A stretch of 64,000 bases of DNA from a candidate division FCPU426 bacterium. Its GTDB lineage: Bacteria > Oederibacteriota > Muellerivitia > Muellerivitales > Muellerivitaceae. The number at the start of each line of letters is the position of its first letter. Positions within the stretch are counted from its first letter, which is position 1. The position numbers were made by a program, and so were the translations under genes. Below, one piece after another: positions 6,315 through 56,849 of the stretch. Location: contig CAVTWJ010000020.1 of the NCBI GenBank assembly GCA_963738405.1, positions 1 through 64,000 on the forward strand, written 5' to 3'. The notes under the pieces were generated by a model. The model was not told where the DNA came from, searched no databases, and was given only the letters and a program-made list of their open reading frames with translations.

Positions 6315-6352
6315 GACCCGGTTTTGAAGCCCATTTGAACCACAAGGAAGCC

Positions 6353-7213
6353 ATGAAGACCAAGACCGCTCCCAAAAAAACTCTTCCGAAAGCTCAGCCC
6401 AAGACCCAAAAAGCCTTAACCCCTTGGGATCGGGTCCAGTTGGCGCGGCATGCCGAGCGCCCTTTCTCGTTAGATTACATTCCCCGCATCTTTACTGATT
6501 TTGTGGAAATTCACGGGGACCGCGCCTTCGGGGATGACCCGGCCACCGTAACCGGTTTTGCCATGTTGGAGGGCCATTCGGTGGCTCTCGTGGGTCAACA
6601 AAAGGGCCATGACACCAAGGAAAATCTCCGGCGAAATTTCGGAATGTCCCAGCCGGAAGGCTACCGCAAGGCTTTGCGGGTGATGAAACTGGCTGAAAAA
6701 TTCCATAAACCCGTAATTACCCTGATTGATACCGCCGGGGCCTATCCGGGCCTGGGCGGGGAAGAAAGGGGCCAAGCGGAAGCCATCGCCCGCAACCTCC
6801 TGGAAATGGCCCGGCTCCGCACCCCGATTATTTCCGTGATTTTAGGGGAAGGCGGCAGCGGCGGGGCCATCGGTATTGGGGTCGCCAACAAGGTTTTGAT
6901 GATGGAAAACGCCTGGTATTCGGTCATTTCGCCCGAGGGATGCGCGGCGATCCTTTGGAACGATCGGGAAAAGATACAGCAGGCGGCGGAGGTCCTGAAA
7001 CTTTCGGCTTCCGAATTGTTAAAGTTCAAGATCGTTGATGAAATTATCCCCGAACCCGTTGGCGGCGCCCAAAACGATTACGAACAAACGGCGGCCAGCT
7101 TGAAAAACGCCCTATTGAAACACCTTAAGCCGCTTTTAAAAATGAAACCGAACGCTCTGGAAGACCAACGCTACAAGAAGTTCCGCGCCATGGGCTTCTT
7201 CAAGGAAAAATAA
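6353..7213 (+). CDS. accA: Acetyl-CoA carboxylase carboxyltransferase alpha subunit
   Basis: [45 protein letters not shown] and [14 protein letters not shown]. Confidence 0.97.
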
Positions 7214-18418: not shown

Positions 18419-18461
18419 AGGCCCGCAACAGGTGGTACTTTCCCGAAATCTAGGAGATGGA

Positions 18462-20765
18462 ATGGAACTTCAGCCCATCTTGATCTCAATGGTGGAAAAA
18501 AAGGCTTCCGACGTTCATATGAAGGCCGGAGCCCCTCCCATGTTCCGTATTGATGGAGACCTTCAGCCCCAAAGCGAAACCCCCCTGACGCCTCAAGAAT
18601 TGGCCGAAGTAGCCTCCTACCTGATGGATGAAAAACAACAACACATTTTTTTTGATGAACACCGTGAGGTGGACTTGGCCTATGCGGTGGAAGGTCTAGC
18701 CCGTTTTCGGACCAATGCCATGTGGCAAAGAGGGCTTCCGGAAATAATCATGCGGGTCATTCCGCAAATCATCCCCCGGATTGAAGACATCAATATGCCA
18801 ACAGCGATATTAAAACAAATCGCCTCAGAACAAAGAGGCTTGATCTTGGTAACGGGTATTACGGGGTCGGGAAAAAGCACCACCTTGGCTTCCCTCATTA
18901 ATGAGATCAACCTCAACCGCTCGGCACATATTGTCACCATCGAGGACCCGATTGAATTCGTGCACCAGGATAAAAAATGCAGCGTCACCCAAAGGGAGGT
19001 GGGGCTGGATACCGAAAGTTTCAAGTCGGCCCTAAAATACGTCCTGCGGCAGGACCCCGACGTCATCCTGATCGGGGAAATGCGGGACGTGGAGACGGTT
19101 TCAGCCGCCATTTCCGCCGCGGAGACGGGCCATTTGGTACTTTCGACCCTTCATACCATGGACTCCATCCAAACGATTGAGCGAATTCTCGATTTTTTTC
19201 CCCCCACACAGCAAAACCAAATCCGGGTTCAGCTATCAGGAACGATTCGGGCGATCATTTCCCAACGGCTGGTGGGGAAAGCCGACGGCGTGGGCGTGGT
19301 GCCGGCTTGTGAGATTCTTATTGCCACTCCCACCATCAAATCACTGATCGGGGAAGGCAAAATCAGCTCGATCCGAGGTTTCATCGCGGAAGGCCATAGC
19401 CAATATGGTATGCAAACTTTTGATCAATCCCTCATCGAGCTGGTTCGAAAGGGCATGATCACCAAAGAAAACGCCATGGAGCAAGCCACTTCCCCAAGCG
19501 AAATTGACCTTGGTTTGAAGGGTATCTCTTCCTCTAAAGCCTCGGCCCAATCCCTCATCTCCCAAATGGAAAACAGCCAGCAGAAGGAACGCTTGGGCGG
19601 CTGGTTGAAGCGAGCCCAGGAACTATACGAAAAGCGAAGGGTTGACGAGACTCGAGCTGAATTGAAGCGCATCCTTCAGGAACAGCCCGATCATAAGGAA
19701 GCCAACGCCTTGATGGCAAAAATCAGGGAAGCGGATGACCAGACGGAAAAGAAAAAGGATGTTTCGGGGATTATCAAAACGGCCCTTCAAATGTACCGGG
19801 AAGGAAAACAAGAAGCCTCTATCCTGGAATTTCAAAAGGCGCTGGAAGTGGATCCCGCCAACAAACAAGCCGAGGGGTACATCCGTTCGATACGTGGGGA
19901 AATGGAAAACCAAACTCAAGCCCGGGAGGCCTTCCAGGCGGCGGTTCAGGCTCAGCGATCGGGTGATTTGAACGCGGCCTTGGGACAGGTGGAGCAGGCC
20001 TTGGCATTGGACCCCTCGCACGAACAGGCAAAGGTTTTGCGCCGTGATTTGAAACTGGCGTCGCAAAAAGAACATGCTAGGGCGAAAGCTGCAGAATTCA
20101 GCCAGTCGGCCGTCGATTTGTACAAATCGGGGGATCTCTTGGGGGCCCTTGTGGCTTGGAACCGAGCCTACGAACTTAACCCAGATTTGGAAGACGTGGC
20201 CCGATATCTCCAGCAGGGAATTCAGAAACTCCTATCCTTTGGAGTGGAAGGCGTTGAGTTGAACCCCGAAAAAGAAAATGTTTTAGGCCTTTTCGAACAA
20301 GGGGTGCGTAGTTATGTTCGGGGTGATTTTCAGACCGCGATGGAGTTTTTCAAAAAAGCCTCTGGTAAAGCGGATGGAAACAGCTATTTGGGAGCCTATC
20401 TTCAAAAGTCCTCCCAAATGCTGGAAGATCAGATCAACGAAATTTTCCAAGAAGGCTGGCGGGCCCATCAGGCGGGGGAATTGCTGAGCGCCCAAAAGGA
20501 ATATAACAAAGTACTGCGTCTTTCCCCTGGCCACCCTGAGGTGGTTCGGCAATTGGGAACCTTGAAAACCCAAGTTCTGCAGGAGTCCGAAAGGCTTTAT
20601 AACGAAGGAAAAAAATTCTTTGATCAAAATGACATGGATCAAGCGGTGAGGGTTTGGGAGAAAATCCTGGAATTGGATCCACAGAATGAGCGGGCGCAGA
20701 AAAAAATTGAAGAAGCCAAAATAAAGAAGAATACCCTTAGCGGTATCTTCTCGAAGATCGGATAG
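18462..20765 (+). CDS. pilT: PilT/PilU-family type IV pilus ATPase fused to about 400 aa of TPR repeats
   Basis: ASDVH, GITGSGKST (Walker A), TIEDPIE, LRQDPDVILIGEMRD, AETGHLVLSTLH and GMQTFDQ; repeated AL(E/A)LDP TPR motifs follow. Confidence 0.88.
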   Translation: MELQPILISMVEKKASDVHMKAGAPPMFRIDGDLQPQSETPLTPQELAEVASYLMDEKQQHIFFDEHREVDLAYAVEGLARFRTNAMWQRGLPEIIMRVIPQIIPRIEDINMPTAILKQIASEQRGLILVTGITGSGKSTTLASLINEINLNRSAHIVTIEDPIEFVHQDKKCSVTQREVGLDTESFKSALKYVLRQDPDVILIGEMRDVETVSAAISAAETGHLVLSTLHTMDSIQTIERILDFFPPTQQNQIRVQLSGTIRAIISQRLVGKADGVGVVPACEILIATPTIKSLIGEGKISSIRGFIAEGHSQYGMQTFDQSLIELVRKGMITKENAMEQATSPSEIDLGLKGISSSKASAQSLISQMENSQQKERLGGWLKRAQELYEKRRVDETRAELKRILQEQPDHKEANALMAKIREADDQTEKKKDVSGIIKTALQMYREGKQEASILEFQKALEVDPANKQAEGYIRSIRGEMENQTQAREAFQAAVQAQRSGDLNAALGQVEQALALDPSHEQAKVLRRDLKLASQKEHARAKAAEFSQSAVDLYKSGDLLGALVAWNRAYELNPDLEDVARYLQQGIQKLLSFGVEGVELNPEKENVLGLFEQGVRSYVRGDFQTAMEFFKKASGKADGNSYLGAYLQKSSQMLEDQINEIFQEGWRAHQAGELLSAQKEYNKVLRLSPGHPEVVRQLGTLKTQVLQESERLYNEGKKFFDQNDMDQAVRVWEKILELDPQNERAQKKIEEAKIKKNTLSGIFSKIG

Positions 20766-20776
20766 AAAGGGAAAAA

Positions 20777-21178
20777 ATGAAACCACTTCTTATTGGAGGA
20801 GGATTGATCATTTTGCTTTTTGTGACGGCGCTTAATACCGGTATGATTTCCGATCAAGCGAACCAATGGATTCAAAAAAACCCCAAGGACCCCAATGCCC
20901 CACAGGTTCTTTATGACGTGGCCCGCTACTGTGATATTTTGGGGGATAACAACAGAGCTCAGTCTCTTTACGATGAGTTTTATCATTTATATCCAGAGAA
21001 CTCCTCCCTTTGCGCCGCCGCTCTTTATTACGAAGCCGACAATAAAGTCGAAACTTCAGCCGTTACCAAGGCTTACGCCGTTCCCATATTGGATACGATC
21101 ATCAACCAATATCCCAACGAAGAAAAATGGGTGACGAAAGCCAAAGCGCTGAGAGATGAGGTCACCTATGTTCATTAA
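20777..21178 (+). CDS. Small membrane-anchored TPR-like (BamD/CpoB-like) protein
   Basis: N-terminal hydrophobic anchor; NPKDPNAPQVLY, LYPENS and QYPNE helical-repeat signatures. Confidence 0.5.
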   Translation: MKPLLIGGGLIILLFVTALNTGMISDQANQWIQKNPKDPNAPQVLYDVARYCDILGDNNRAQSLYDEFYHLYPENSSLCAAALYYEADNKVETSAVTKAYAVPILDTIINQYPNEEKWVTKAKALRDEVTYVH

Positions 21179-22166
21179 GAATGATTGGATTCGTTTAATC
21201 GCTTTGTGTCTGATGCTGGCCGCTTTTCCTCAAGGTTCGGTGTCGGCCAAGACGATCGAAATTGAGGAAAATGTCCAAAACCCAACAACGGCGCCAGCGT
21301 CCTCCGCCCCCTTGACGTTGGCGCCCGTCACAACTTCCTCCACATCGGCGGTTGTTCATGAAACGGCCCCGTTAGCGACCGCTCCGGTTTCGAGCCCGGA
21401 AACGGTCATTGCGGCTTCCGCTACAGGTTCTTCGAACGTGGAGAATGGAGATTTACCCCAAAGCCCAAAGGTGCGGGCACCCCAAGATTTAAGTTTTTAC
21501 TCATTCCTTATGTCAGGCTTTGTGGTTCAAGACGGGGAAAGAGTAGAGGCCTTGGGAAAGGTGGCCGTCCCATCGGATGGTTCCTTGGGCTATGCTCCGC
21601 CTCAAAAGGCCCAGGTTTTGCTCGCAGATACCTCGAAATGCAAGGTTGGCGATATTTGGACGGTTTATCATCTTGAGGAAAATATCCTTGATGAACCTGA
21701 ATTAAATTTTCAGGGATCCTTGGGCGATATTCGAGCGGTAATTCAAGTGGAGGAAATTACTAAGAACTTTGCGACGGTCAATATCATTCAGAGTTTCAGG
21801 CCCTTCGAGCCGGAGGATCAGGTCCGGGACTATGCTCTTGACGTCAAGCGTTGGAAGAGGGCACAGACGAAGAAGCCGCTTCCTTCGGCGGAGATCCGTT
21901 GTTTTGTGGCGGGCGGATCCAGAATAAAAGATTCGTATGACCAGTTGGACACTGTTATTTTAACCGCAGGGACCCGTAAGGGTTTGGTTGAAGGAATGAA
22001 ATTTGATTTGGATCAAAAAACCGATGAGGGCGCGATGGGGGGGGTGCGATTTAATAAGATTGGTACTGCAGAAGTGTTTTATTGCGGAACGACCTATAGC
22101 CTTGCCCGGATTCTTCAGTCGCAGGATGGAATCCAAAAGGGGTTTACGGCCATTTACCGGCCGTGA
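21168..22166 (+). CDS. Secreted protein with an S/T/P-rich linker and two TsaP-C/FlgT-C-like beta domains
   Basis: Signal peptide ending VSA; repeated pattern G..F/W.v......g...V......s.a.I.qS at VGDIWTV..IIQS and VEGMKFDL..ILQS; no LysM domain visible. Confidence 0.5.
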   Translation: MFIKNDWIRLIALCLMLAAFPQGSVSAKTIEIEENVQNPTTAPASSAPLTLAPVTTSSTSAVVHETAPLATAPVSSPETVIAASATGSSNVENGDLPQSPKVRAPQDLSFYSFLMSGFVVQDGERVEALGKVAVPSDGSLGYAPPQKAQVLLADTSKCKVGDIWTVYHLEENILDEPELNFQGSLGDIRAVIQVEEITKNFATVNIIQSFRPFEPEDQVRDYALDVKRWKRAQTKKPLPSAEIRCFVAGGSRIKDSYDQLDTVILTAGTRKGLVEGMKFDLDQKTDEGAMGGVRFNKIGTAEVFYCGTTYSLARILQSQDGIQKGFTAIYRP

Positions 22167-22172: not shown

Positions 22173-23060
22173 TTGTCACCCACTCCATCCACCAACGGGC
22201 CGATACGACTTGGAGCGGAAGAGGATCCTTTTTTTCATGCCGTACTAAGCTATCTGCTTTCGGCGAAGGGTTTTGACGCTTCCCGATACAAGCGAAACTA
22301 TATCAAGCGCCGTATAGCGGTCAGAATGAGGGCCACAGGCTCGGCGACCTACGAAGCCTATGGGAAACTCTTGACCCAAAAAAAAGATGAAGCGGGTTTG
22401 CTTTTGGACCGGCTCACGATTCATGTAACCGAGTTTTTTCGGGATTCCTCGGTGTTTCATGCGTTGAGAGAAAAGGTTTTCTCAAAACCGGCGGGGGAAG
22501 ATCTTTTCCATGTCTGGTCGGCGGGTTGCAGCACCGGTGAAGAAGCCTATTCGGCGGCGATCACTCTTAAAGACTGGGCGCTTCAGCATCCACCCTTTCC
22601 TTTTGAAATTTGGGCTACCGATATCGATCCCCAAAGCGTCAAAACCGCGGAGAAGGCTCAATATTCGGTTAGCGCACTAGCCAAAATGAGCAAAGCCCAC
22701 CAATCACGCTGGTTTTATTTTCATGAGGAAAAGGCATCGGTTGTGGAGGATTTAAAAAAACATGTCTGGTTCCGGACCCATGACCTGTTAGGGGACTGGT
22801 CGGTTGACTTGGCCCGGTTCGATATGATCTTTTGCCGAAACGTCATGATTTATATGACGGCTCCCCAACAGCAGATCCTTTATCAAAAGTTCGCCCAATC
22901 TCTCAAGGTTGGGGGCTTTTTGGTGTTAGGACTCACCGAAACGCTGATGGGCAAGGCCAGGAGTTTTTACAGGTGTGTGGACGTCAGGCACCGTATTTAC
23001 CAAACTCTTTCTGATCCGTCGTCAAAGGACTCGGCTCAAGTGGAGGCACCGATTGGATAA
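22173..23060 (+). CDS. cheR: Chemotaxis methyltransferase
   Basis: VTEFFRD, WSAGCSTGEEAYS, ATDID and IFCRNVMIY motifs. Confidence 0.93.
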   Translation: MSPTPSTNGPIRLGAEEDPFFHAVLSYLLSAKGFDASRYKRNYIKRRIAVRMRATGSATYEAYGKLLTQKKDEAGLLLDRLTIHVTEFFRDSSVFHALREKVFSKPAGEDLFHVWSAGCSTGEEAYSAAITLKDWALQHPPFPFEIWATDIDPQSVKTAEKAQYSVSALAKMSKAHQSRWFYFHEEKASVVEDLKKHVWFRTHDLLGDWSVDLARFDMIFCRNVMIYMTAPQQQILYQKFAQSLKVGGFLVLGLTETLMGKARSFYRCVDVRHRIYQTLSDPSSKDSAQVEAPIG

Positions 23061-24231
23061 AGCGCAAGACCATATCAACCTTGGAACCGCTTTTTCGATT
23101 TCCAAGCGATACGATGACGCGATCGTGGAATTCCGGAAGGCGCTTGAATTAAGCCCCTCCGACGGCGAAATTCTCTTTCAACTGGGTGGCCTTTGCACCA
23201 ATTTGGGCCGGTATGGGGAAGCCCAGGAATACTACCGCCGGGCCCTCCAGATCAATCCGATGAATCTCAATGCCCATTGTAAGTTAGGATTATTATTGGA
23301 GGCGGAGGGGAAGTACCAAGAGGCGGTTCTTGAATTTGAAAAAGCGCTTGAGTTAAACCCTTCGGATGCCGGCCTCTACAACAATTTGGGAAATGTTCTT
23401 GTGAAAATGGGGAACTATTCACAAGCGTTGGATCAATACCGGCGATATATCGGTATCAATCCGAAAAACGCTGAAATTTATTTTAAAATGGGTTTCGCTC
23501 ATGAACAAACCGGGGAATGGGATTCGGCTGTTGAGGATTATACCCTGGCCCTTCAAATCAATCCCCGCCACGCCGCGGTGCACGCCATTTTGGGAAACGC
23601 CCTCTCTAAACGGGGTAAATTTACCGAGGCCTTGGCTTGTTATGAGGAGGCCTTAAGGCTGAATCCCCACGAACCGGAAGTTCATTTCCGGATGGGCGTG
23701 GTTTTGATGAATCTTGGACATTATGACCGCGCCCAAGAAATCCTGGAACAAGCCTTGCAAAAGAATCCGTTAAACGCGGAAGTTTATCTGAAGCTGGGAA
23801 TGATTCACGCCGGAAGGGGCCGCCATGAGGACGCCATCCGGATGTATAAAAAAGTGATGGAAATCAATCCTCATGACGCGAGCGTTCATAACGTGCTGGG
23901 ATACATTTACGACAAGCAGGGGGATTCCCCAAGAGCCATGGAAGAATACCAGGCCGCCAAGGCCTTGAATCCGCACGATCTGTTGATTCTCGACAATCTG
24001 GGGAACCTTCTTTACAAAAGCGGTAAGGTGGATGAGGCCGTGGAGAATTATTCGCAAGTCGTGGCGCTCAATCCTTCCCACGGGGACGCCCACGCGAAGC
24101 TCGGGAACCTGTATCTCAAAAAGGGCGAGAAGGCCCTCGCCATTGCCCATTGGGAAAAGGCCTTGGCTTTGGAACCGCAAAACGAGATCTTGAAAAACAA
24201 CCTGAAATTTTTCAAGGAAAACGCCCAGTGA
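23053..24231 (+). CDS. All-TPR cytoplasmic protein (about 11 repeats)
   Basis: Continuous 34-aa repeats (AL.INP...LG); TTG start after GGAGG, overlapping the cheR stop. Confidence 0.9.
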   Translation: MDKAQDHINLGTAFSISKRYDDAIVEFRKALELSPSDGEILFQLGGLCTNLGRYGEAQEYYRRALQINPMNLNAHCKLGLLLEAEGKYQEAVLEFEKALELNPSDAGLYNNLGNVLVKMGNYSQALDQYRRYIGINPKNAEIYFKMGFAHEQTGEWDSAVEDYTLALQINPRHAAVHAILGNALSKRGKFTEALACYEEALRLNPHEPEVHFRMGVVLMNLGHYDRAQEILEQALQKNPLNAEVYLKLGMIHAGRGRHEDAIRMYKKVMEINPHDASVHNVLGYIYDKQGDSPRAMEEYQAAKALNPHDLLILDNLGNLLYKSGKVDEAVENYSQVVALNPSHGDAHAKLGNLYLKKGEKALAIAHWEKALALEPQNEILKNNLKFFKENAQ

Positions 24232-24866
24232 TTTCTCAACGCCAGGAAAAATCACTCGGTGAACTGCTTCGGCAGGCGGGAAAAATCACCTCCCGGCAAA
24301 TTCAGGTGGCGTTGGCGGAACAGCGAAAGAGCCATGAGCCCATCGGGAAAGTTTTGGTGCGCTTAGGGTTTGTGGAAGAAAGAGACATCCTCCAGGTTTT
24401 ACAGGGGCTTTCCGCCTTGACTTTTGTTTTAGGTCGGGAACTTTTCGGGGTTGAAACCTTCCGTGCCCGTGAAGTGATGAAATACAGCCCCTACAAATCC
24501 TCGGAAGCTCCCGGGAGCTGGGTTGGCAGCTGTCTTTTGCGTTCGAGGGAACTTCCATTGTTGTCTCTGAGGCGGGTTCTGGGGATGGAGGACCCTGTTC
24601 AGCCGACCTCCACTTGGTATATTGTTTTGGAGGTCAGGGGTCTGCCTTTCCTACTGTGGGTTGACGCAGTGAAGGAAGTGACCCGGTTTAAGGTGGATCA
24701 AATCGAGTCCCCGCCGACCTATCTCTTTGGAAAAAAGTCCGATTTATTTTATTGTTTGGGTAAAATAAAGGATGATTTGTACTCTATTTTGAATCCCGAA
24801 AAACTGCTCGAAGAGGGGCCTCTTCCTCCCTCTTTCCCAAGAGGAAACCATGCCGACCCGCCCTGA
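24228..24866 (+). CDS. MshEN-like N-terminal domain fused to a CheW domain
   Basis: SLGELLRQAGKITSRQIQVALAEQ..PIGKVLVRLGFV, then FGVETFRAREV, LRSRELPLLSLRRVLG, WVDAVKEV and ILNPEKLL; GTG start overlaps the upstream stop. Confidence 0.8.
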   Translation: MISQRQEKSLGELLRQAGKITSRQIQVALAEQRKSHEPIGKVLVRLGFVEERDILQVLQGLSALTFVLGRELFGVETFRAREVMKYSPYKSSEAPGSWVGSCLLRSRELPLLSLRRVLGMEDPVQPTSTWYIVLEVRGLPFLLWVDAVKEVTRFKVDQIESPPTYLFGKKSDLFYCLGKIKDDLYSILNPEKLLEEGPLPPSFPRGNHADPP

Positions 24867-27060
24867 TATCAAAACTATCCGCGAAATGGCCAATGGGTCA
24901 GACCAGGGGGATGCCTCCACCCATAACAATTTGGGCGTTTTTTATTATTCCAAGGGCATGTCCGCGGAGGCTTTGAAAGAGTTTCGCACCGCCCTGGAGG
25001 TGGATCCCGAAAACAATCAAGCTCTTGAGAATTTAAAGGCGGTCAACCGCCAGACGGGTCTTTATGACAGGACCCTGGAAGCCTTTAAAAAATCAGTCCA
25101 GATGTTCCCGTCCGACGCCGAGGCGGTTTATAACTTGGCCAACGCCTACCGCTATACGGGCCAGTTTGACAAGGCTGTGGAGGAATACCGTAAAACCCTG
25201 GAGCTCAACCCGGAGCATCCCTTCGCGCGAAATTATCTGGGCATTTGTTTCAAATGCTTGGGTTTGTTGGACGACGCGGTAAGGGAATTTAAGAAAGCCA
25301 TTGAAGCCAATCCCTATTTCGCTGATTTGCACAATAATTTAGGCGAGGTTTATTACAAGAAGGCCATGATCAATGAGGCCTTGATCGAATTTAAAAAGGC
25401 CGTCTCTCTGAGTCCCGAATATCCGGGGGCCCATTACAACCTAAGTTTTGTTTACGGCGATAAGAACATGCTGGAGGAAGCGGAAAGGGAATTCAAAAGG
25501 GCGGTGGACCTGAACCCCAATTTCGGACAGGGCGCCCAGGCCCTTTTATCCATCGAGCGGCCCAAGACCATGGAAGAAAGGGTGGCGGAACAGGTGGCGG
25601 CCCAACCCTCTGTTTCCTCGATCGAAACCTACCTCAGCTTGGCGGCCGCCTATCGAGGCAAAGGTCTTTTGGACGAGGCAATCCGGGAATACAAAAGGGC
25701 CATCGAGATAAACCCCCGCGAAGAAAAGCTTTACCGCTCTATGGGGGAGATTCTTTTACAAAAGGGGCTGTTGGAAGACGCCCTTCAAGCCTTTCAAAGA
25801 GCCGTATCCCTGGCGCCGGATAACGTCGATAACCACATTCAATGCGGTGTCGCCTTACGGGAACTCAATCGGAACGAAGAGGCCGCCTTTGAATTCCAAA
25901 AAGCCGTTGAGATCATGCCGGGTTCCAGCATGGCTCATTTTGAAATGGGCGTCACCTATTTCAAAATGGGGGAAAGCGAAAGAGCGACCCGCGAGGTAAG
26001 GGGCGCCTTGGAATTGGACCCTCAAAACGCCGAGGCTCATTATTACCTGGGCGTTTATTACTATAAGGTCAACCTGTTCGATGAGGCCATCCGTGAGATT
26101 ACTCTGGCCATGGAGCAGAACGTTTCGATCGCCTCCAGCGCGGAAGCCCTGACTTATTTGGGGCTGGCTCTGGCCGACAAGGGGCGCTTCGATGAGGCGA
26201 TCGCCGAGTATAAGAAAGCTTTGGAGTTCGACCCTAAAAACCCCATCATCCATAATTCCTTGGGAGTGGCTTACAAGAACGCGGGCCAGATGCCCGATGC
26301 CATCCGCTGTTACCAGCGCGCGATTGCCTTGAATCCGCGTTATGCCAAGGCCTACAACAACTTGGGCGTGGTTTACTTCAAACAAAGTCAGTATGAAAAG
26401 GCCATTGAAGGGTTCCAAAAGGCTGTCGAGATTGAGCCGGATTATAAGACCGCCCAAAATAATTTGACGGTCGCCCTTAAAAAGAAAAACGTTCTAACGG
26501 AGGCCTCCGAGGTCCTCATTAAGCAGATTATGGCAGAACCCGAGAATGCCGGGTTGCACCAGAATTTAGGGATTCTTTACAAAAACACAGGCCAATACCC
26601 GGAGGCCGTGCGGGAGTTTACCGAAACCATCCGGATTTCCCCTAAAAACCGGGACGCATTGACTCATCTTGGGGAAACCCATCTGCTTTTAGGACAGATG
26701 GATGATGCGGTTAAAATCCTGGCCAAGGCCGTCGCCTGCGATCCATCCCATCCCGACGCCCACCTTCAGCTGGGCAAGGTTTATATCCGCCGAGGATGGT
26801 GGGACGAGGCGCAAGTCGAAATGAAAAAAGCCCAAGAACTCAAACCCGATCTTTCTGAGATCCATTTCCACTTAGGACAAATTTACCGGTCCAAAAGCTG
26901 GTGGGATGAGGCCCTTAAAGAGTTTCAACTTTATCTGGATACCCCGACCCCGGATGAAGAAAAGGGAGCTCAAGCGATCGATTGGATACGCCAAATTCAG
27001 GTTTGGAAAGCGGAACTTCAGATTTCGCCTTCGGCCGGCCGCTCCAAGCTGATTAAATGA
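24850..27060 (+). CDS. Large all-TPR protein (roughly 19-20 repeats)
   Basis: Repeated HNNLG..Y...G..DEA..EFK.A..LNP units; no signal peptide. Confidence 0.92.
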   Translation: MPTRPDIKTIREMANGSDQGDASTHNNLGVFYYSKGMSAEALKEFRTALEVDPENNQALENLKAVNRQTGLYDRTLEAFKKSVQMFPSDAEAVYNLANAYRYTGQFDKAVEEYRKTLELNPEHPFARNYLGICFKCLGLLDDAVREFKKAIEANPYFADLHNNLGEVYYKKAMINEALIEFKKAVSLSPEYPGAHYNLSFVYGDKNMLEEAEREFKRAVDLNPNFGQGAQALLSIERPKTMEERVAEQVAAQPSVSSIETYLSLAAAYRGKGLLDEAIREYKRAIEINPREEKLYRSMGEILLQKGLLEDALQAFQRAVSLAPDNVDNHIQCGVALRELNRNEEAAFEFQKAVEIMPGSSMAHFEMGVTYFKMGESERATREVRGALELDPQNAEAHYYLGVYYYKVNLFDEAIREITLAMEQNVSIASSAEALTYLGLALADKGRFDEAIAEYKKALEFDPKNPIIHNSLGVAYKNAGQMPDAIRCYQRAIALNPRYAKAYNNLGVVYFKQSQYEKAIEGFQKAVEIEPDYKTAQNNLTVALKKKNVLTEASEVLIKQIMAEPENAGLHQNLGILYKNTGQYPEAVREFTETIRISPKNRDALTHLGETHLLLGQMDDAVKILAKAVACDPSHPDAHLQLGKVYIRRGWWDEAQVEMKKAQELKPDLSEIHFHLGQIYRSKSWWDEALKEFQLYLDTPTPDEEKGAQAIDWIRQIQVWKAELQISPSAGRSKLIK

Positions 27061-27070
27061 CAGGAAAAAT

Positions 27071-27409
27071 ATGAAACTTCTCTTATGTATGTTCTCGACG
27101 AAAAAACTGGAACCCGTTAAAAAGGCCCTTTGGGAAGCGGGGGTCCGGGGTGTGACCCTATCCGACGGCTCGGGATACGGCTACCAGAGGGTCCAGGTGG
27201 AATCCGTGCAAGGGGCGGATTATAAGGTACAATACCAGGACCGTTTGAGGCTTGAGATTGTCCTTCCCGACAATGAGGTTGAGAGGGTGGTGGATATTCT
27301 CTTAGAGGTTATACGAACGGGCCGTATTGGAGACGGAAAAATATTCGTCCTACCGGTGGATGAGGCGATTCGGATCCGGACGGGCGAACGGGGCGAGAAT
27401 GCCCTTTAA
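27071..27409 (+). CDS. Divergent P-II family signal transduction protein (GlnB/GlnK-like)
   Basis: 112 aa; G35-Y-G37-Y-Q39, Y51, TGRIGDGKIFV and RIRTGE align without gaps to canonical GlnB. Confidence 0.93.
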   Translation: MKLLLCMFSTKKLEPVKKALWEAGVRGVTLSDGSGYGYQRVQVESVQGADYKVQYQDRLRLEIVLPDNEVERVVDILLEVIRTGRIGDGKIFVLPVDEAIRIRTGERGENAL

Positions 27410-27512
27410 GATTTCGAGACACAACTATTTTGACGCCCCACATATTTCGGCGTCGTTTTTAACGGGGTTCAAAGTTGTGAGGGGATGAAATAGACCTAAA
27501 TAGGAGGTTTTT

Positions 27513-27875
27513 GTGGCTCAGAAAATTCTTTTGGTCGATGACGCTTCCTTCATGCGCATGATGCTTAAAAACATCCTGGCGGGGGCGGGCTACGAAGTGG
27601 CGGGGGAAGCGGAAAACGGAGCCAAAGCTATCGAACAATACAAAACCCTTAAACCGGATCTGGTCATCATGGATATCATCATGCCCGAAATGGGCGGCAT
27701 CGACGCGGTGAGGGAAATCGTTAAGGCCAATCCCGGGGCCAAAATTCTGATGTGCAGCTCCATGGGACAGCAATCCCTGGTGGTGGAAGCCATTCAGGCC
27801 GGCGCCAAGGATTTCATCGTCAAGCCCTTCCAGCCTTCCAATGTGTTGGAAGCCGTGAAAAAGGTTCTCGGTTAG
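27513..27875 (+). CDS. cheY: Chemotaxis response regulator
   Basis: VDD, MDIIMP (phospho-Asp), SSMGQ and FIVKPF; Bacillus/Thermotoga-type CheY. Confidence 0.93.
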   Translation: MAQKILLVDDASFMRMMLKNILAGAGYEVAGEAENGAKAIEQYKTLKPDLVIMDIIMPEMGGIDAVREIVKANPGAKILMCSSMGQQSLVVEAIQAGAKDFIVKPFQPSNVLEAVKKVLG

Positions 27876-27964: not shown

Positions 27965-28600
27965 GTGGAATCAAGCTCCCCATCCTTTTCTGAGTTTCAA
28001 TTGGACGCCCTGCGTGAAGTCGGGAATGTGGGAGCCGGCCACGCGGCCACGGCCCTTTCCCAAATGGTGGGGCGCCCCATCGGCATGTCCATCACACAAG
28101 TCATGATCCTTCCCACGGACCAGATCGCGGGTTTTTTGGGCGGGGAAAAGGCCGATGTGGCGGCTGTTTATATGCCGGTCTACGGGGACCTATGCGGTGT
28201 GGTCTTAATTTTTTTTCCATTGGATCTCCTTCCTGATTTGGCCGGGCTGCTCTTGAAAAGGGACCCCCAATCACCCGAATTGTCTGAAATGGACCACTCG
28301 GCCATCAAAGAACTGGGGAGCATCCTCACCGGGTCTTATTTGAGTGCCCTTTACCGTTTCATCCATGTCCAAATGATTCACGGCGTACCAACCCTGGTCG
28401 TGGATATGGCCCAGGCCATTTTGGACACCGTTTTTGTGGATCTGGAACAAAAAGATGACATGGCCATCGTGATTGAATCCAGCTTGACGGAGAACGAACG
28501 AAAGTTAACGGGCAGGTTTTTTCTTCTTCCCGAGGCCGGAACCCTGCCGAAACTTTTTAAGGCCTTTACCCAGTCAATTGAAATGTCGGGCAATGCCTGA
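27965..28600 (+). CDS. cheC: CheY-P phosphatase CheC
   Basis: DALREVGNVGAGHAATALS; the second site reads SAIKELGS. Confidence 0.92.
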   Translation: MESSSPSFSEFQLDALREVGNVGAGHAATALSQMVGRPIGMSITQVMILPTDQIAGFLGGEKADVAAVYMPVYGDLCGVVLIFFPLDLLPDLAGLLLKRDPQSPELSEMDHSAIKELGSILTGSYLSALYRFIHVQMIHGVPTLVVDMAQAILDTVFVDLEQKDDMAIVIESSLTENERKLTGRFFLLPEAGTLPKLFKAFTQSIEMSGNA

Positions 28601-29655: not shown

Positions 29656-30018
29656 TTGGCGATCAAAGTTTTGTTCGCGGACGATTCATCTTTTATGCGG
29701 GGAATATTAAAAGGCATTATCTTAAAAGACCCTTACGTTCTCGCGGGGGAAGCGGAAAACGGCAAGCAAGCGGTGGAACAATTCCAGGCCTTGAAACCCG
29801 ACCTGGTCACCATGGACATCGTAATGCCTGAAATGGACGGCATCGAAGCGGTTAAGAAAATCCGAGAAATAAATCCTTCCGCCCGAATCATCATGGTATC
29901 GGCCATGGGCCAACAGGCCATGGTCATTGAGGCCATCCAGGCAGGCGCCAGGGATTTTATTATCAAGCCTTTCCAGCCGCCTCGGGTTCACGAATCCTTA
30001 AAAAGGGTCATGGGGTAG
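29656..30018 (+). CDS. cheY: Second CheY response regulator
   Basis: ADD, MDIVMP, SAMGQ and FIIKPF; close paralog of the first cheY. Confidence 0.92.
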   Translation: MAIKVLFADDSSFMRGILKGIILKDPYVLAGEAENGKQAVEQFQALKPDLVTMDIVMPEMDGIEAVKKIREINPSARIIMVSAMGQQAMVIEAIQAGARDFIIKPFQPPRVHESLKRVMG

Positions 30019-30019: not shown

Positions 30020-31114
30020 ATGGGTCCAACGGACGCAAATACCAAGCCACCCATCCGCGTTCTCGTGGTTGATGATTCTTTTTTCATGAGAAAAATGATC
30101 GCGGAGGCTCTCGACGCGCCCGGCACGGGAATGAGGGTAGTGGAAACGGCCTCCGACGGCCTGGAGGCGCTGGCGAAAGTTAAAACCATCAAGCCGGATG
30201 TTCTGACCCTCGATGTGGAAATGCCCAAGTTGGACGGGATTGCCACGCTGGAGCGGCTCATGGTCGAGTATCCCCTGCCGGTGGTGATGCTTTCCAGCCA
30301 TACGGGAAAGGGCACCGAGGCGACCCTCAAGGCCTTGGAACTGGGAGCGGTCGAATGCGTCTTGAAACCAGCCGGCGGCGTTCCCGGTTCTCTCAAGGGC
30401 ATCGAGCAAGAGCTGGTCGAAAAAATACGTTTGGCCTCCCAATGCACCCCCCGGCCCGGCCGGGTTTCCTTAGCGCGGGCGTTTGCCCCCAGCCACGCGT
30501 CTTCTCAACCGAGGGAAGGGCGCACGTCCAATTCAGCCCGATTTTTGGTCTGTGTGGCTTCCTCGACGGGCGGACCCAGGGCCTTAAATGAATTTTTCTC
30601 GGGATTGATTCCTCATCCCCTGGCCGCCCTTCTGGTGGTTCAGCATATCTCCGTGGGTTTTACCCAAGCCCTGGCCCGCCGCCTATCCGAAGCTGGTCCC
30701 ATGCTTGTCACCGAAGCCGTCAAGGGAGAAAGGGTTTTGGGAGGCAGGGGATATGTCGCCCCCGCCGGAAATCATTTGGTGGTGGAAGGGAAGGCCGGAG
30801 AATTTATTTTTCAATTCAGCGATTTGCCTCCGCGGTTAGGGGTCAAGCCCTCCGCTGATGTCCTGATGAGCTCGGCGGCCAAGGCGGCAGGCCCCAAATG
30901 CCTGGGAGTCGTCTTGACGGGCATGGGGAGAGATGGCACCCAGGGCCTCAAGGATATCCGTTCAGTGGGGGGGAAAACTTTCGCTCAGATCCCTGAATCC
31001 TGCGTGGTTTACGGCATGCCCAAATCGGCGGTGGAGGCGGGGGTTGTTTCCCGCCAATTGGACCTGCAGCCTATGGCCCTTGAAATCAACCATTTGTTAT
31101 CCAATGAGGCTTAG
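30020..31114 (+). CDS. cheB: Chemotaxis methylesterase with REC domain
   Basis: LDVEMP; catalytic SSTGGP, VQH and LTGMGRDG; CVVYGMP. Confidence 0.95.
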   Translation: MGPTDANTKPPIRVLVVDDSFFMRKMIAEALDAPGTGMRVVETASDGLEALAKVKTIKPDVLTLDVEMPKLDGIATLERLMVEYPLPVVMLSSHTGKGTEATLKALELGAVECVLKPAGGVPGSLKGIEQELVEKIRLASQCTPRPGRVSLARAFAPSHASSQPREGRTSNSARFLVCVASSTGGPRALNEFFSGLIPHPLAALLVVQHISVGFTQALARRLSEAGPMLVTEAVKGERVLGGRGYVAPAGNHLVVEGKAGEFIFQFSDLPPRLGVKPSADVLMSSAAKAAGPKCLGVVLTGMGRDGTQGLKDIRSVGGKTFAQIPESCVVYGMPKSAVEAGVVSRQLDLQPMALEINHLLSNEA

Positions 31115-31188: not shown

Positions 31189-33273
31189 ATGATGGAAAAA
31201 TCAGTTACCCGTTCATTTTTAATGCTTGTTTTGTTGACGATTCCTTCCTGTTGTTTGGCCTTTGGCCCTTTAATGCAATACAACGATCTGGTGGCGGGGG
31301 AGGGCGATCCCGGTTTTGAGGATGGAAACTTTTATTCAGCGCAGTTTAATCAACCAGAAGGTTTGGCTCTCAATGAGGATGGATCGATTCTCTATGTGGC
31401 CGATCGTGAAAACAACCGTGTCCGGGCAGTGGACCTCAACAACGAAAATGCAGTTCTAACGATTGCTGGAACTGGTAAAGCCGGTAATCTGAACGGTCCA
31501 ATTTCGACCGCCACACTCAACCACCCCAACTGTTTGGCGGTTTTGCCCGGTGGGCAGATTGCGGTCGGAGAGGAGGCTGGAACCAAGGAATCGTTGATTC
31601 GTTTGATTGATCTGAAAACTAAAACAGTTACGACTTTGGCTGGCGGCGGAGGTTCTAAAGCCGATGGCCCCGCCTTAGAAGTGCGATTGAGTGGTCTTTG
31701 GAATATGGCTTACCGTCCTTCGGATCAAGGCCTTTATTTTACGGAGCCGGGGGAGGGCGCCCTCCGAAGGCTGAACCTCAAGACGGGATGGGTTGAAACC
31801 GTCCTTCAAAACAATGGGTTGATCCCCAATCCGATGGCGCTTTGTGTGAGCGGCGATAAACTTTACGTGGCCGATGAAGATTTGGGCCTGCTCCATGGCC
31901 AGGTTTTTCGCCTGGAAGGGCTTGAAAACATAACTGAACACTCGGTCGATTTGAATTCAAATGCCCCGGTTACACCCACCCCGGGCACGCCCAATTTTAG
32001 GGTAGGGCTTCAACCGGTGGGCAATGCCCGTGGGGCTGTCGCTTTGACGGGAACCCCCAGCGATCTTTACGCGTACGAAGGCCTACCCGATCCGAACTCG
32101 CCCTCCCCTATCCTGTGTTTAACCGCCCCTTCCCGCTCAGTGACTTTCGTTTCGGTTTGGGGCGAACCTATCGCGAACGCCACAAGCGTAATGCCTTATT
32201 TTAAGAGAATGGATGCTTTTCGTTCGGTTGGGTTTATTGCCGATCCCCGATCGGAGGGCCGATTTTATGTCACGAATCCTCCTAATCACCTCATAGCGGC
32301 TTTCCGTGACCTTGAATTTGCCAGTCACTTAAGTGATTGCCAGAATTTCAATTATCCCCAAAAGAAACCCTTTCGAACCTTCAGGATATTTATTGTCGGA
32401 AGGTCTTATCCCTGCATTCAAGCCGATTGCAACTACGATGGGAAAGGGACACCCACCACCTCATACAACACGATGACGACATTCCCCGCAAAACTCGAAT
32501 TGGAACTAAATACCCAGGCCGCCTTGGATGACGTCCCCGTTCATTTTGAAGTTATGAACGCCCATGTGGTTACGAGTGTGCCCATCTGGACTTGGCCTTA
32601 TACCGTCGTGCCCCCGTTCGTCAAGTCGAGAAACATTGATTTGGTCCTTATCACGGTCGATCCGTCCCAGTCCGATCTCGAGGATTTTTATTTAGGGCCT
32701 TTCACCCCGGATGGTCGGCCACCTGAAGAGGCGGACCCGGAATTTGTGTTAAAACCGGATTCGGAGAAGTTCGCGAAAGAACCGCTGCATTCATTTTTTG
32801 AACTTTGCCGTAATAAGAAACTCCTCACGGTGGCGGAGGATAAAAAATGGACACTGGCGCCGTTTTCACAGTTGATCTCGGATGCTGAAGTTGAAATTAA
32901 ATTGATTAGCCTGGTTGGGGCCTCCTTGGGAGGCCTGAAAAAAGAGTTGGATTCAATTTTGACCAGCGCGGGCGTTCCCTGCCGGTTGGGCATCTGCTAT
33001 TTTTTTACACCGGAGATGACTTATTTTCCCACGAAAATCGATAGGCGGTTTTGGCGGGACCTGTGCGCAACTACCGGAATGTCGTTCCTGGATATGACGG
33101 ATATACAGTTAGTAACCCGATTGACTTATTCCCCCTATTCGGACGTTTTTTCAAAAGGGGGGCATTTTAGTACGGATGGCCATGCTTTTTTTGGGCGTTT
33201 GCTGGCTCATGAGTTGATCAGGCAAAATTTGATTCCCTTTAAGAAAAAAGACCAAGATCTACTTCCTAAATGA
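31189..33273 (+). CDS. Secreted NHL-repeat protein with an SGNH-hydrolase-like C-terminal domain
   Basis: Signal peptide; FNQPEGLAL..LYVADRENNRVR NHL repeats; IFIVGRSY and GGHFSTDGH resemble SGNH blocks I and V. Confidence 0.6.
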   Translation: MMEKSVTRSFLMLVLLTIPSCCLAFGPLMQYNDLVAGEGDPGFEDGNFYSAQFNQPEGLALNEDGSILYVADRENNRVRAVDLNNENAVLTIAGTGKAGNLNGPISTATLNHPNCLAVLPGGQIAVGEEAGTKESLIRLIDLKTKTVTTLAGGGGSKADGPALEVRLSGLWNMAYRPSDQGLYFTEPGEGALRRLNLKTGWVETVLQNNGLIPNPMALCVSGDKLYVADEDLGLLHGQVFRLEGLENITEHSVDLNSNAPVTPTPGTPNFRVGLQPVGNARGAVALTGTPSDLYAYEGLPDPNSPSPILCLTAPSRSVTFVSVWGEPIANATSVMPYFKRMDAFRSVGFIADPRSEGRFYVTNPPNHLIAAFRDLEFASHLSDCQNFNYPQKKPFRTFRIFIVGRSYPCIQADCNYDGKGTPTTSYNTMTTFPAKLELELNTQAALDDVPVHFEVMNAHVVTSVPIWTWPYTVVPPFVKSRNIDLVLITVDPSQSDLEDFYLGPFTPDGRPPEEADPEFVLKPDSEKFAKEPLHSFFELCRNKKLLTVAEDKKWTLAPFSQLISDAEVEIKLISLVGASLGGLKKELDSILTSAGVPCRLGICYFFTPEMTYFPTKIDRRFWRDLCATTGMSFLDMTDIQLVTRLTYSPYSDVFSKGGHFSTDGHAFFGRLLAHELIRQNLIPFKKKDQDLLPK

Positions 33274-33484: not shown

Positions 33485-35545
33485 TTGAACACTCAGGACT
33501 ATAAAGATTTATTTCTCACCGAAGCCCGCGATTACCTCTCTACCTTGAACAACGCCTTGGTAGCCCTTGAAAAAGATCCTGCCCATTCGGAGGCGGTGAA
33601 GGAAATTTTCCGCGCCGCCCACACCCTTAAGGGCATGTCCGCCACCATGGGGTATACCCCCCTGACGACCCTGACCCATCAGATGGAAAGCGCCATGGAA
33701 CCCGTTCGATCCGGTTTAACCCCCCTTTCCCCCGATTTGGTGGACACCCTTTTTGCCTGTTTGGACCGGCTGGAATCCTGGGTAAAGACCCTCGAGTCGG
33801 GCGAGGAAATAAACGAAGAGTCCATTGGAAATCTAGTGGAGAGGCTTTCTTCCTCGTTGGGGGTTCCGGTTGCCCCCGGGTCGGGCTCGGCACCATCGGT
33901 AACCCTTCCTACCCCCTCTTTTGTTTTTGACGAAAATGAAAAGAGCATCCTGGCCCAGGCTAGGGTCAACGGTTTTTCGATCTTTCGAATCCTTGTCCGA
34001 GTTGAGCCGGGTTGTGTTTTCAAGGAAGTGCGGGCCTTCATGGTTTTGAAAAATCTTAATGACTTGGGGGAGGTGGTCAAGTCTAATCCCCCGGGGACGG
34101 TGGTGGAAAAGGGGGAGTTTGACCGGTCTTTTGAGTTGATCCTGGTCACGGAAAATTCCGCACAAAAGATTCAAGCGGCGGTTCTTTCGGTGGTTGAGGT
34201 GGAGGCCGCGGTGGTAACGCCCTTTGACCCTTCTGCACCCGAAACAGGGGCATCCGTCCTGGCCGCCGAGGCGCAGACACCGAAACCTTCCGAGTTCGGC
34301 GCCCCGGGGGAGGATAAAAACATCGCCTTCCCTACGATTCGTGTCCACACCAGCAAACTGGATAAGCTCATGACCCTGGTGCAGGAGCTGGTGATTTCCA
34401 AGATACGCTTTGAGATGGTGGCCGCCAACGGCGAGGTCAAGGAACTGCGGGAACCTTTAAATCAGCTGCACCATATCACCGACGAGCTTCAAGATGAAAT
34501 TATGAAAGTGCGCCTCATCCCCGTCAAACAGGTCTTTGACCGGTTTCCCCGCATGGTCCGGGATCTGGCGAAGAAACTTGGGAAACAAGTCAATCTTGAG
34601 ATGGACGGCGCGGAGGTTGAGCTGGATCGCACCGTGATTGATGAGATCGGGGAGCCCCTGGTCCATCTCTTGCGAAACGCCGTTGATCACGGCGTCGAGG
34701 ACCCGGAAGAGAGGGCCCGGGACGGTAAAGACCCCTTCGGCACCATACGGCTTCAGGCCAAGAGGGAAAGATCCTCGGTGGTTTTATCTGTCATTGACGA
34801 CGGAAAGGGAATCGACCCCGAAAAGGTGCGCCAGCGGTCGGTGAGCAAGGGGCTCATGACGGCGGAAGAGGCGGGGAAACTTTCCGATGAGGAGGCGGTC
34901 CGGCTCATCAGCCTTCCTGGATTTTCCCTCGCGGAAAGGGCCACCGAGGTTTCAGGGCGCGGGGTGGGCGTGGACGCGGCCAAGGCGAAGGTCGAATCGA
35001 TGGGTGGCAGTTTCCGAATCCAGAGCCGAAAGGGAGTGGGCACCACCTTCTTCCTGCGTTTTCCCCTGACCCTGGCTATCATCAAGGCTCTGCTTATCAA
35101 GGCCGGGGGCGAGACCTTTGCCCTTCCCGTGACGGGAGTTCTGGAGACCTTGGAGATCAACCCTTCCGAAAAACGCAGGCTCCAGTTGCAGGATACCCTA
35201 TTGCTGCGCGATGAGGTGCTGCCCCTCTATCACTTGGCGGAACTGCTCGAGTTAAAAAACTCGCCGCCCCCCCAGGATTTGGAATCGGTGGTAGTTGTTG
35301 AGGTGGGAGAGTCGAAGGTGGGTCTTCTGGTGGACGCCATTGTGAGCCAGAACGAGATCGCCATTAAGCCCCTGGACCGCTTTTTGAAAAAAATCCGGGG
35401 GTTTGCCGGAGCCACGGTTTTAGGGGACGGCCATATCGCCCTCGTGCTGGATGTGAACAGCCTCATTGAGGATTTACGTGAACGCCGTCATCGAGCCGAT
35501 TATTCTCTTCCAGGTAAGGAAAACGCCCATGCTCTTGAATCTTGA
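33485..35545 (+). CDS. cheA: Chemotaxis histidine kinase
   Basis: IFRAAHTLKG (Hpt), a P2 domain, HLLRNAVDHG, DDGKGID, GRGVGVD, PLTLAII and a C-terminal CheW domain. Confidence 0.97.
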   Translation: MNTQDYKDLFLTEARDYLSTLNNALVALEKDPAHSEAVKEIFRAAHTLKGMSATMGYTPLTTLTHQMESAMEPVRSGLTPLSPDLVDTLFACLDRLESWVKTLESGEEINEESIGNLVERLSSSLGVPVAPGSGSAPSVTLPTPSFVFDENEKSILAQARVNGFSIFRILVRVEPGCVFKEVRAFMVLKNLNDLGEVVKSNPPGTVVEKGEFDRSFELILVTENSAQKIQAAVLSVVEVEAAVVTPFDPSAPETGASVLAAEAQTPKPSEFGAPGEDKNIAFPTIRVHTSKLDKLMTLVQELVISKIRFEMVAANGEVKELREPLNQLHHITDELQDEIMKVRLIPVKQVFDRFPRMVRDLAKKLGKQVNLEMDGAEVELDRTVIDEIGEPLVHLLRNAVDHGVEDPEERARDGKDPFGTIRLQAKRERSSVVLSVIDDGKGIDPEKVRQRSVSKGLMTAEEAGKLSDEEAVRLISLPGFSLAERATEVSGRGVGVDAAKAKVESMGGSFRIQSRKGVGTTFFLRFPLTLAIIKALLIKAGGETFALPVTGVLETLEINPSEKRRLQLQDTLLLRDEVLPLYHLAELLELKNSPPPQDLESVVVVEVGESKVGLLVDAIVSQNEIAIKPLDRFLKKIRGFAGATVLGDGHIALVLDVNSLIEDLRERRHRADYSLPGKENAHALES

Positions 35546-36146
35546 TGATTTGACCCCATCCCAGGTGGATGCCCTAAAGGAGGTCGGCAATATCGGGGCG
35601 GGCCACGGCGCCACGGCCCTTTCCCAAATGCTGGGGAAAAAGATCAAAATTACCGTTCCCCGGGCGACCGTCCTTCCCTTAAGCGAAGTGCCGAATCTAG
35701 TGGGGGACCCCCAAACCCTGGTGGCGGGCCTTTGCCTCGCCATCCTGGGGGACGCGACGGGCAAGATATTCTTGCTCTTTCCCCGCACCTCGGCCCTCCA
35801 CCTGGCCGATTTGCTTTTGAAGCAGGAAGTGGGTACCAGCCAGATCCTTAACGAATTGGGGCATTCCGCCATTAAGGAGGCGGGCAACATCCTCGCGGGG
35901 GCTTACCTGAGCGCCTTGAATGAGTTTTTGGGGATGCTTCTTTTGATGTCCGTTCCCACGCTGGTTTTTGACATGGCCGGGGCGCTCTTGACCACTTTGG
36001 CCCAGGGGATGGAAAAAACCTCCAAAGTCATCGTGATTGAAACCCAATTTTTGGATGATAACGAGGTGGTGGGAGGCTATTTCATCCTTGCGCCCGATCC
36101 CGTTTCACTCCAGGCGATTTTCCAGGCTATCCGGGTCACTAAATAG
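35529..36146 (+). CDS. cheC: Second CheC phosphatase
   Basis: DALKEVGNIG and SAIKEAGNIL, both E-x-x-N sites intact. Confidence 0.92.
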   Translation: MLLNLDDLTPSQVDALKEVGNIGAGHGATALSQMLGKKIKITVPRATVLPLSEVPNLVGDPQTLVAGLCLAILGDATGKIFLLFPRTSALHLADLLLKQEVGTSQILNELGHSAIKEAGNILAGAYLSALNEFLGMLLLMSVPTLVFDMAGALLTTLAQGMEKTSKVIVIETQFLDDNEVVGGYFILAPDPVSLQAIFQAIRVTK

Positions 36147-56755: not shown

Positions 56756-56849
56756 AAAATCTTGTTTCTGTTTTCCTTGCGGTTTTTGGTTGAGTAGCTT
56801 CTGAGCTATAATTGCCGTGCTTATCTATTTTGTTTCGCGAGGAAGTCAC

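Follow-up and report, generated by a model that had tools for sequence, protein, structure and literature searches.

The DNA examined here is a stretch of 64,000 nucleotides from a candidate division FCPU426 bacterium (assembly GCA_963738405.1, contig CAVTWJ010000020.1, positions 1 to 64,000), which we call the window. At 27071..27409 on the forward strand it carries an ATG-initiated gene of the P-II family, encoding 112 amino acids and lying within a cluster of chemosensory (che) genes, between the gene for a 736-residue protein of tetratricopeptide repeats (TPR), here called TPR736, and cheY. The product forms a distinct clade of its own. This subfamily occurs in a single lineage of uncultured soil bacteria, whose members keep it at the same place in the cluster. 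This placement, between a TPR scaffold gene and cheY, suggests that the P-II protein passes a metabolic signal to the chemosensory pathway. The explanation we favour, with a confidence that stops a little short of even, is that a lineage-specific P-II subfamily of the GlnB/GlnK type has been recruited into the che cluster, where it would feed energy or metabolic state into the pathway.

Membership of the P-II family is evident from sequence, fold and signatures alike. The Pfam P-II profile (PF00543) is covered end to end, positions 1-102 of 102, at 80.3 bits (E 1.5e-22, cut-off 25), and in the PDB every one of the 41 distinct sequences matched at E <= 0.001 is a P-II, GlnB or GlnK protein, with 2gw8 from Neisseria scoring highest (111 bits). 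The four PDB alignments displayed contain no gaps; residues 4-111 pair with 4-111 of 1qy7 (Synechococcus) and residues 5-111 with 5-111 of 1pil (E. coli), and because both run in register, canonical P-II numbering can be used directly. The AlphaFold2 monomer model (mean predicted local distance difference test score, pLDDT, 87) has the beta-alpha-beta-beta-alpha-beta order of a ferredoxin-like fold, with strands at 2-9, 29-40, 51-65 and 91-95 and helices at 10-22 and 67-81; the second strand runs to residue 40 and the third starts at 51, leaving the loop 41-50 at low confidence. Foldseek comparison of this model with solved P-II structures gave template modelling (TM) scores of 0.78-0.85, with 0.85 to 1qy7. 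Both family signatures are present, the B-loop as RTGRIGDGKIF and the C-terminal motif as RIRTGE. At the level of the NCBIfam equivalogs the picture differs: the product scores 90 bits against cut-offs of 202 for GlnB (NF008111) and 181 for GlnK (NF007946), and thus fails as a canonical equivalog of either. A search of the ESM Atlas with the protein returned ordinary P-II clusters only.

The boundary of the subfamily is sharp. A word-indexed search found 61 clusters that are 66-92% identical to the product (126-223 bits), below which the next P-II proteins reach at most 54% identity and at most 123 bits. When 1.84 billion representatives at 50% identity were searched exhaustively, 9212 matched at E <= 0.001 and two at E <= 1e-30, these being one representative of the clade and one fragment; the whole subfamily amounts to a single 50% cluster. 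For tree inference we calculated a maximum-likelihood tree of 93 rows, made up of 19 of the clade's 62 sequences, 53 close matches from outside the clade and 21 representatives; the non-clade rows and representatives were 105-125 amino acids long, the remaining rows having been omitted for size or length. The clade occupies one side of a branch (support 87 in the approximate likelihood ratio test of the Shimodaira-Hasegawa type, SH-aLRT) and adjoins three sequences, P0147, P0207 and P0217, which may be its sister group, with support of 87, a placement to be interpreted with the caution due to their long branches. These three have C6 and W21 in common, lack R38 and have a T-loop shorter by 1-3 residues; position 58 is basic in two of them and Q in the third. 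The first-pass annotation had described the protein as a divergent P-II, and it is indeed a real and constrained family member, in a clade of its own and well below the equivalog cut-offs.

The position of the gene in the window was also described correctly by that annotation: the stop codon of the TPR736 gene ends at 27060, the ATG of the P-II gene is at 27071, and the GTG of cheY follows at 27513. The 10-nucleotide spacer upstream (27061..27070, forward strand, caggaaaaat) contains the Shine-Dalgarno-like word AGGA, and cheY begins 103 nucleotides past the P-II stop, after a GGAGG word. To follow this arrangement into other genomes, the GTDB set (one genome per species) was scanned with a degenerate DNA pattern for the T-loop motif G-[YF]-G-Y-Q-[KR]-V-Q-V-[DE]. 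The scan yielded 13 loci (L001-L013), all in uncultured metagenome-assembled genomes and each with a clade P-II that is 70-89% identical to that of the window. An ortholog of TPR736 (63-91% identical) stands immediately upstream in all 13, and cheY (88-97% identical) immediately downstream in all ten loci that extend far enough; orthologs without che linkage would have refuted the proposal of the first-pass annotation, and none was found among these loci. The shared order is PilT-TPR ... cheR, TPR, cheW, TPR736, P-II, cheY, cheC, cheD, cheW, cheY, cheB, cheA, with cheA found in seven of the eight loci that reach beyond cheB (L008 lacks it) and the PilT-TPR gene in 7/7 that reach that far at the other end. 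It holds despite identities of only 42-55% for cheR, cheD and cheW2 in the more distant loci (the cluster genes diverge to very different degrees, with cheR, for example, at 45-71% and cheD at 48-81%), and despite gain and loss of genes nearby, such as an NHL gene seen only in the window and an FtsA-like gene after cheC2 in L002. The spacer between TPR736 and P-II is at most 12 nucleotides in nine of the 14 genomes. That between P-II and cheY varies from 31 to 182 nucleotides, with only GGAGG and the GTG conserved; it is 31 nucleotides in two of 11 genomes, implying co-transcription there.

Purifying selection on the gene is strong. The median ratio of non-synonymous to synonymous substitution rates (dN/dS) is 0.096 for those pairs, 61 out of 91, whose dS is below 3; the comparison of the window with L012 gives dN 0.061 and dS 1.06. 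The mean protein distance is 0.29, and among the cluster genes compared only the two cheY genes have lower values. With the gene and its position kept in 13/13 other genomes and a median ratio of 0.10, the observation is not a product of chance.

What the clade has kept and what it has changed was counted over its 62 sequences, with seven canonical sequences in the alignment and the 148 nearest 50%-cluster representatives as reference. Kept in all or nearly all members are G24, G27, T29, G35, G37, Q39, Y51 and E62, together with R82-K90, F92, R101, R103, T104, G105 and E106, of which R82-K90, R101, R103, T104 and G105 are invariant in 62/62. The conserved G35, G37, Q39, Y51, B-loop and RIRTGE that had been noted in the window protein all proved correct. 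Twelve non-canonical residues are equally invariant or nearly so: K11, W21, Y38, V41, Q42, V43, K52, Q54, Y55, Q56, R58 and R60. The window protein has S9, Y38, V41, Q47 and R58 where the seven canonical sequences have K/R9, R38, G41, R47 and K58, residues that recur in 130, 138, 145, 143 and 144 of the 148 representatives, respectively. The same five changes had been listed earlier against E. coli GlnB; they hold here against the aligned canonical sequences and the representatives rather than against that protein itself.

The T-loop had been called remodelled, which is true of its sequence but not of its length, which is canonical. Within the clade the base of the loop (38-43 and 52-58) is invariant and the apex (44-49) variable; at position 47, K occurs in 36 sequences, Q (the window's residue) in 18 and R in seven. 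Y51 is kept in 62/62; E44 and the GA[D/E]Y context of the tyrosine are kept as well. We take R47 to be the residue that plugs AmtB, and Y51 to be the site at which the loop is modified. By eye, the strings V-Q-V-E-S-V and Y-K-V-Q-Y-Q alternate in pattern, which suggests an amphipathic beta hairpin.

The two ligand sites have fared differently. In the available text on GlnK of the Methanococcales (PMC8395244), the nucleotide is contacted by Thr29', residue 38 (Ile), Gln39, Gly87, Asp88, Lys90, residue 64' (Val or Ala in GlnK structures), Arg101' and Arg103', and Phe92 stacks on the adenine; 2-oxoglutarate is bound by the backbone of both Gln39 and Gly41 and forms salt bridges with Arg9 and Lys58, with Gln39 bridging the Mg ion through its side chain. 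In the clade the contacts to ATP or ADP (T29, Q39, G87, D88, K90, F92, R101 and R103) are kept in 61-62 of 62 sequences and residue 64 is A in 55 and V in seven, so that binding of the adenine nucleotide is probably retained. Of the canonical 2-oxoglutarate ligands (a basic residue 9, G41, K58 and Q39) three of four are changed, position 9 being S or P, 41 V and 58 R, with Q39 alone kept; a non-basic 9, a non-glycine 41 and a non-lysine 58 occur together in only two of 206 non-clade sequences. Canonical sensing of 2-oxoglutarate has therefore probably been weakened or changed. The roles in 2-oxoglutarate binding that the first-pass annotation ascribed to K58 and Q39 agree with the same source and with a second (PMC6908673), the accessible part of which reports that K58N in Synechococcus P-II abolishes 2-oxoglutarate binding and weakens the binding of ADP and of targets. 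Less weight than that annotation implied falls on R38Y. The residue is changed, but it says little alone, since Methanococcales GlnK has Ile at this position, where it hydrogen-bonds to the nucleotide; main-chain binders may vary in GlnK while side-chain binders are well conserved, as far as the available text goes (PMC8395244), and we infer, beyond what is stated there, that Ile38 is a main-chain binder. It is with K9S, G41V and K58R that the substitutions reach the site of 2-oxoglutarate.

On the best reading of these features, a che-dedicated P-II variant would report the ATP/ADP state to the pathway, perhaps by way of the TPR protein TPR736. The clade P-II would form the usual trimer and bind ATP or ADP in the clefts between its subunits, with a 2-oxoglutarate site that is presumably weakened or changed. 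The rebuilt T-loop, with its conserved base, might then dock on a protein of the cluster according to the bound nucleotide or effector, and this docking could let the energy or metabolic state of the cell bias the output of the pathway, in a direction that is itself presumed. TPR736, encoded immediately upstream, would be the first candidate for the partner: it is a constant and usually tight neighbour, it appears cytoplasmic by eye, having no signal peptide, and TPR grooves bind extended peptides. It has two TPR blocks separated by a linker near residues 235-262, and an invariant C-terminal tail. In this tail, residues 713-736 (26989-27057), 12 positions are invariant, including Q715, W719, K720, L723, S726-A729, K733, I735 and K736, whereas the 50 residues before it are the least conserved stretch of the protein; the final 24 residues could be a docking tail. 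CheA would be the second candidate, by analogy with the action of GlnB on the histidine kinase NtrB and the binding of a histidine kinase by GlnZ.

Several observations weigh against this explanation. The 14 genomes represent one lineage, in which synteny spans 20 kb or more and in several cases reaches enolase, 33 kb away (the enolase of the window has about 46 relatives, counted as clusters, at 79-88% identity, followed by mixed phyla at 76%). Being from a single lineage with such broad conserved synteny, the che linkage counts as one evolutionary observation and not as 14, and it could reflect inherited gene order rather than functional coupling. In five of the 14 genomes the spacer between TPR736 and P-II is 46-140 nucleotides. 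A search for longer homologues found no fusion of P-II to a TPR or Che protein among 57 matches, none of which came from the clade; the best full-length identity was 49%, and partial matches did not exceed 65% identity or cover more than 59% of the query. The loss of 2-oxoglutarate binding is itself uncertain, because K58R retains the positive charge and Q39 is retained. Finally, in a mirror-tree test, an underpowered correlation of pairwise distances, with the shared background removed, over the seven genomes that hold all ten genes, no partner emerged for P-II, with 0.07 for TPR736 and a maximum of 0.42 for CheR. Among other pairs the same seven genomes gave 0.89 for CheY2 with CheC1 and 0.76 for TPR736 with CheW1, the latter a hint, from this small sample, that TPR736 works with CheW1.

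In a first alternative, the protein is simply the general, perhaps the only, P-II regulator of nitrogen and carbon in this lineage, acting on distant targets such as regulators of glutamine synthetase, AmtB or acetylglutamate kinase and sitting in the che cluster by accident. Where a whole block stays syntenic in a lineage, a neighbour that is there by accident can be kept along with it; the protein is of the GlnB/GlnK type in every search and retains Y51, its GA[D/E]Y context and E44. Each locus has exactly one P-II gene, and no second was seen in 234,518 bases of this lineage, which comprise the loci rather than whole genomes. Among the systems that P-II proteins are known to target are acetylglutamate kinase (NAGK) and acetyl-CoA carboxylase, and genes for both occur in the window, argB at 56817-57713 (forward strand; TIGR00761, 264 bits against a cut-off of 151) and accA at 6335-7213 (forward strand). 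However, argB is 29 kb and accA 20 kb from the P-II gene, with no sign of linkage for either. Further, a housekeeping GlnB or GlnK would hardly be expected to score so far below both equivalog cut-offs, to have changed R47 as well as the K/R9-G41-K58 triad, which 130-145 of the 148 representatives keep, or to have twelve non-canonical residues invariant or nearly so throughout a clade. The slot between TPR736 and cheY has moreover stayed fixed while genes nearby came and went, with a spacer that is mostly very short. We regard a housekeeping regulator that sits here by accident as unlikely.

A second alternative leaves the protein dedicated to the che system but has its rebuilt pocket read another small molecule, such as a different nucleotide or a second messenger, in place of the ATP/ADP ratio. 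Here the pattern of conservation is suggestive, in that the invariant clade-specific residues line the effector cleft (38, 41-43 and 52-58, with 9 and 11) while the apex of the loop varies; a P-II-like protein that reads cyclic di-AMP, PstA, exists according to such literature as was available; and the window holds a PilZ gene (53331-53687) and a gene for a GGDEF-domain protein (36226..37434, forward strand). Against this, every adenine-nucleotide contact of the solved GlnK structures is kept, and the GGDEF motif of the neighbouring protein, which reads SANRY by eye, looks degenerate, making local synthesis of cyclic di-GMP doubtful. No family matches the first 250 residues of the GGDEF protein, which probably lacks cyclase activity. 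A different ligand thus seems rather improbable to us, and sensing of cyclic di-GMP in particular ranks low on account of that motif.

Equally improbable in our judgement is a che-dedicated ATP/ADP sensor that bypasses the TPR protein and acts directly on the CheA kinase, or on CheY or CheC. Control of the histidine kinase NtrB by the P-II protein GlnB is a known case. The pull-downs with GlnZ of Azospirillum brasilense, in the part of the report accessible to us (PMC7646526), recovered a histidine kinase together with a diguanylate cyclase and a phosphodiesterase of cyclic di-GMP. In addition, the two genomes with the 31-nucleotide spacer tie the P-II gene to cheY, and the mirror-tree comparison gives TPR736 no signal with P-II. 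Set against these points, cheA lies at a distance of 6 kb and is missing from the L008 locus, where P-II stays, and TPR736 remains the tightest and most constant neighbour.

A bolder version of the proposal, to which we give only a slim chance, is that a P-II trimer docked on the TPR scaffold would be the sensory input itself, the array reading the ATP/ADP or other metabolite state of the cell directly and allowing a receptor-independent metabolic taxis that steers a PilT-type motor or another output. It is prompted by the lack of a receptor gene in the cluster: the Pfam scan found no signalling domain of methyl-accepting chemotaxis proteins (MCP) in the open reading frames of the window, nor did one appear in 11 of the 12 unassigned reading frames of loci L001-L013, the one left out being an antisense frame in L006 that overlaps a cheA match. 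The genes whose products act on receptors, cheR, cheB and cheD, are nonetheless present.

The remaining genes of the region, all on the forward strand, frame this arrangement. The series begins with a TPR protein (start 13817) and a TMEM260-like glycosyltransferase with TPRs (start 16150), followed by the gene that heads the conserved che block (18432..20765), which encodes a PilT/PilU-family ATPase (T2SSE; TIGR01420 at 465 bits, cut-off 319) fused to C-terminal TPRs of about 400 residues. This gene is 70-90% identical across loci and was seen in L001, L002, L004, L005, L012, L013 and in part L003; its place at the head of the block means that the chemosensory system may control a pilus-type motor. 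Between it and cheR lie two conserved genes for envelope proteins without a family, one of 133 amino acids with an N-terminal hydrophobic helix and weak similarity to YbgF and TPR proteins (20777..21178), the other of 336 amino acids with a signal peptide and a linker rich in Pro, Ser, Thr and Ala (21156..22166). Next come cheR (22173..23060; CheR 168 bits, with CheR_N) and a TPR protein whose reading frame encodes 418 amino acids (22975..24231). With most orthologs of the latter the alignment begins at residue 27, and with a few at residues 6-20; its true start is therefore probably near 23053, overlapping the cheR stop. The gene for CheW1 (24150..24866), whose orthologs align from residues 28-32 onward, leads into that for TPR736 (24850..27060, ending in TGA).

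Just past the P-II stop, at 27432..27460 on the same strand, lies a hairpin (GACGCC, an 11-nucleotide loop, GGCGTC) followed by a run of T. At most it may be a partial terminator, and a terminator was rejected here: it is not the minimum-energy fold, the z-score of the region is -1.83, a consensus scan ran at chance level (34 terminator-like sites against 32.0 expected), and the hairpin is not conserved at the other loci. Downstream, cheY (CheY1; 27513..27875), with its GTG start, is the most conserved gene of the cluster; it is followed by cheC1 (27965..28600), cheD (start 28578), cheW2 (start 29080), cheY2 (29656..30018) and cheB (30020..31114). The gene for a 694-residue NHL-repeat protein (31189..33273) separates cheB from cheA (start 33485), whose product has Hpt, P2, dimerisation, HATPase_c and CheW-like domains; next, cheC2 (35466..36146) precedes the GGDEF gene, after which dprA starts at 37437. 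Further downstream of the cluster, a protein of 2757 amino acids with NHL and FlgD-Ig domains is encoded at 42060-50333. The earlier statement that no amtB, glnA or nif gene is nearby agrees with a Pfam scan of the 47 open reading frames of the 64-kb window, in which the ammonium transporter, glutamine synthetase and nitrogenase families had no match; nor did the scan find pot genes in these frames.

Compared with the canonical GlnB/GlnK proteins of known structure (1qy7, 2gw8 and 1pil), the clade protein thus has the same length, aligns without gaps, is predicted to share the fold, and keeps the signatures and adenine contacts with Q39, E44 and Y51; it departs from them in its identity of at most 54%, its scores below the equivalog cut-offs, its residues S/P9 and K/Q47 along with the twelve listed above, and its place in a che cluster instead of beside amtB or glnA. 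The nearest concept is PotN, a P-II subfamily of the Firmicutes linked to the potABCD polyamine transporter and, to judge by the title of the paper, concerned with sensing of energy state (Iskhakova et al., 2022, as cited in PMC10945777). Like the clade described here, it is encoded with, and from the available description thought to act on, a target outside nitrogen metabolism, but lineage, neighbourhood and class of target all differ in this comparison, which is by description and not by sequence. GlnZ offers a precedent for an influence of P-II on motile behaviour, since the glnZ mutant of Azospirillum brasilense shows altered aerotaxis and flocculation in the accessible part of the report (PMC7646526); GlnZ, however, is a canonical P-II that responds to 2-oxoglutarate, acts on many targets and has its gene outside any che cluster, whereas the P-II examined here is divergent and fixed within one. 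TPR proteins encoded with che genes are also represented by WspC, FrzF and AglT/AgmK, and large TPR proteins in Myxococcus occur in a complex that binds the FrzCD chemoreceptor, according to the text available (PMC3447774). In the present cluster a TPR gene follows directly after cheR, but its TPR proteins stand apart as individual products of far greater size (418 and 736 amino acids), no receptor gene accompanies them, and those other systems have no P-II component. No description of a P-II linked to che genes emerged from our literature search, whose coverage of subscription journals is thin.

Few metabolic sensors are as widespread as the P-II proteins, whose known targets are mostly enzymes of nitrogen and carbon metabolism, transporters and transcription regulators. 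The subfamily described here is a narrow case and hard to study in its native host, because it occurs only in a single lineage of soil bacteria that is uncultured, and the mechanism is so far entirely inferred; the pattern itself is clean, conserved and unexplained. With the adenine site kept and three of the four 2-oxoglutarate contacts changed, the clade amounts to a natural experiment in the retuning of P-II ligand specificity. If the proposed recruitment is true, a P-II subfamily fixed in a che cluster would add the control of behaviour to the dedicated outputs of P-II proteins, and would offer energy or metabolic state a simple molecular way into the Che pathway that needs no dedicated receptor.

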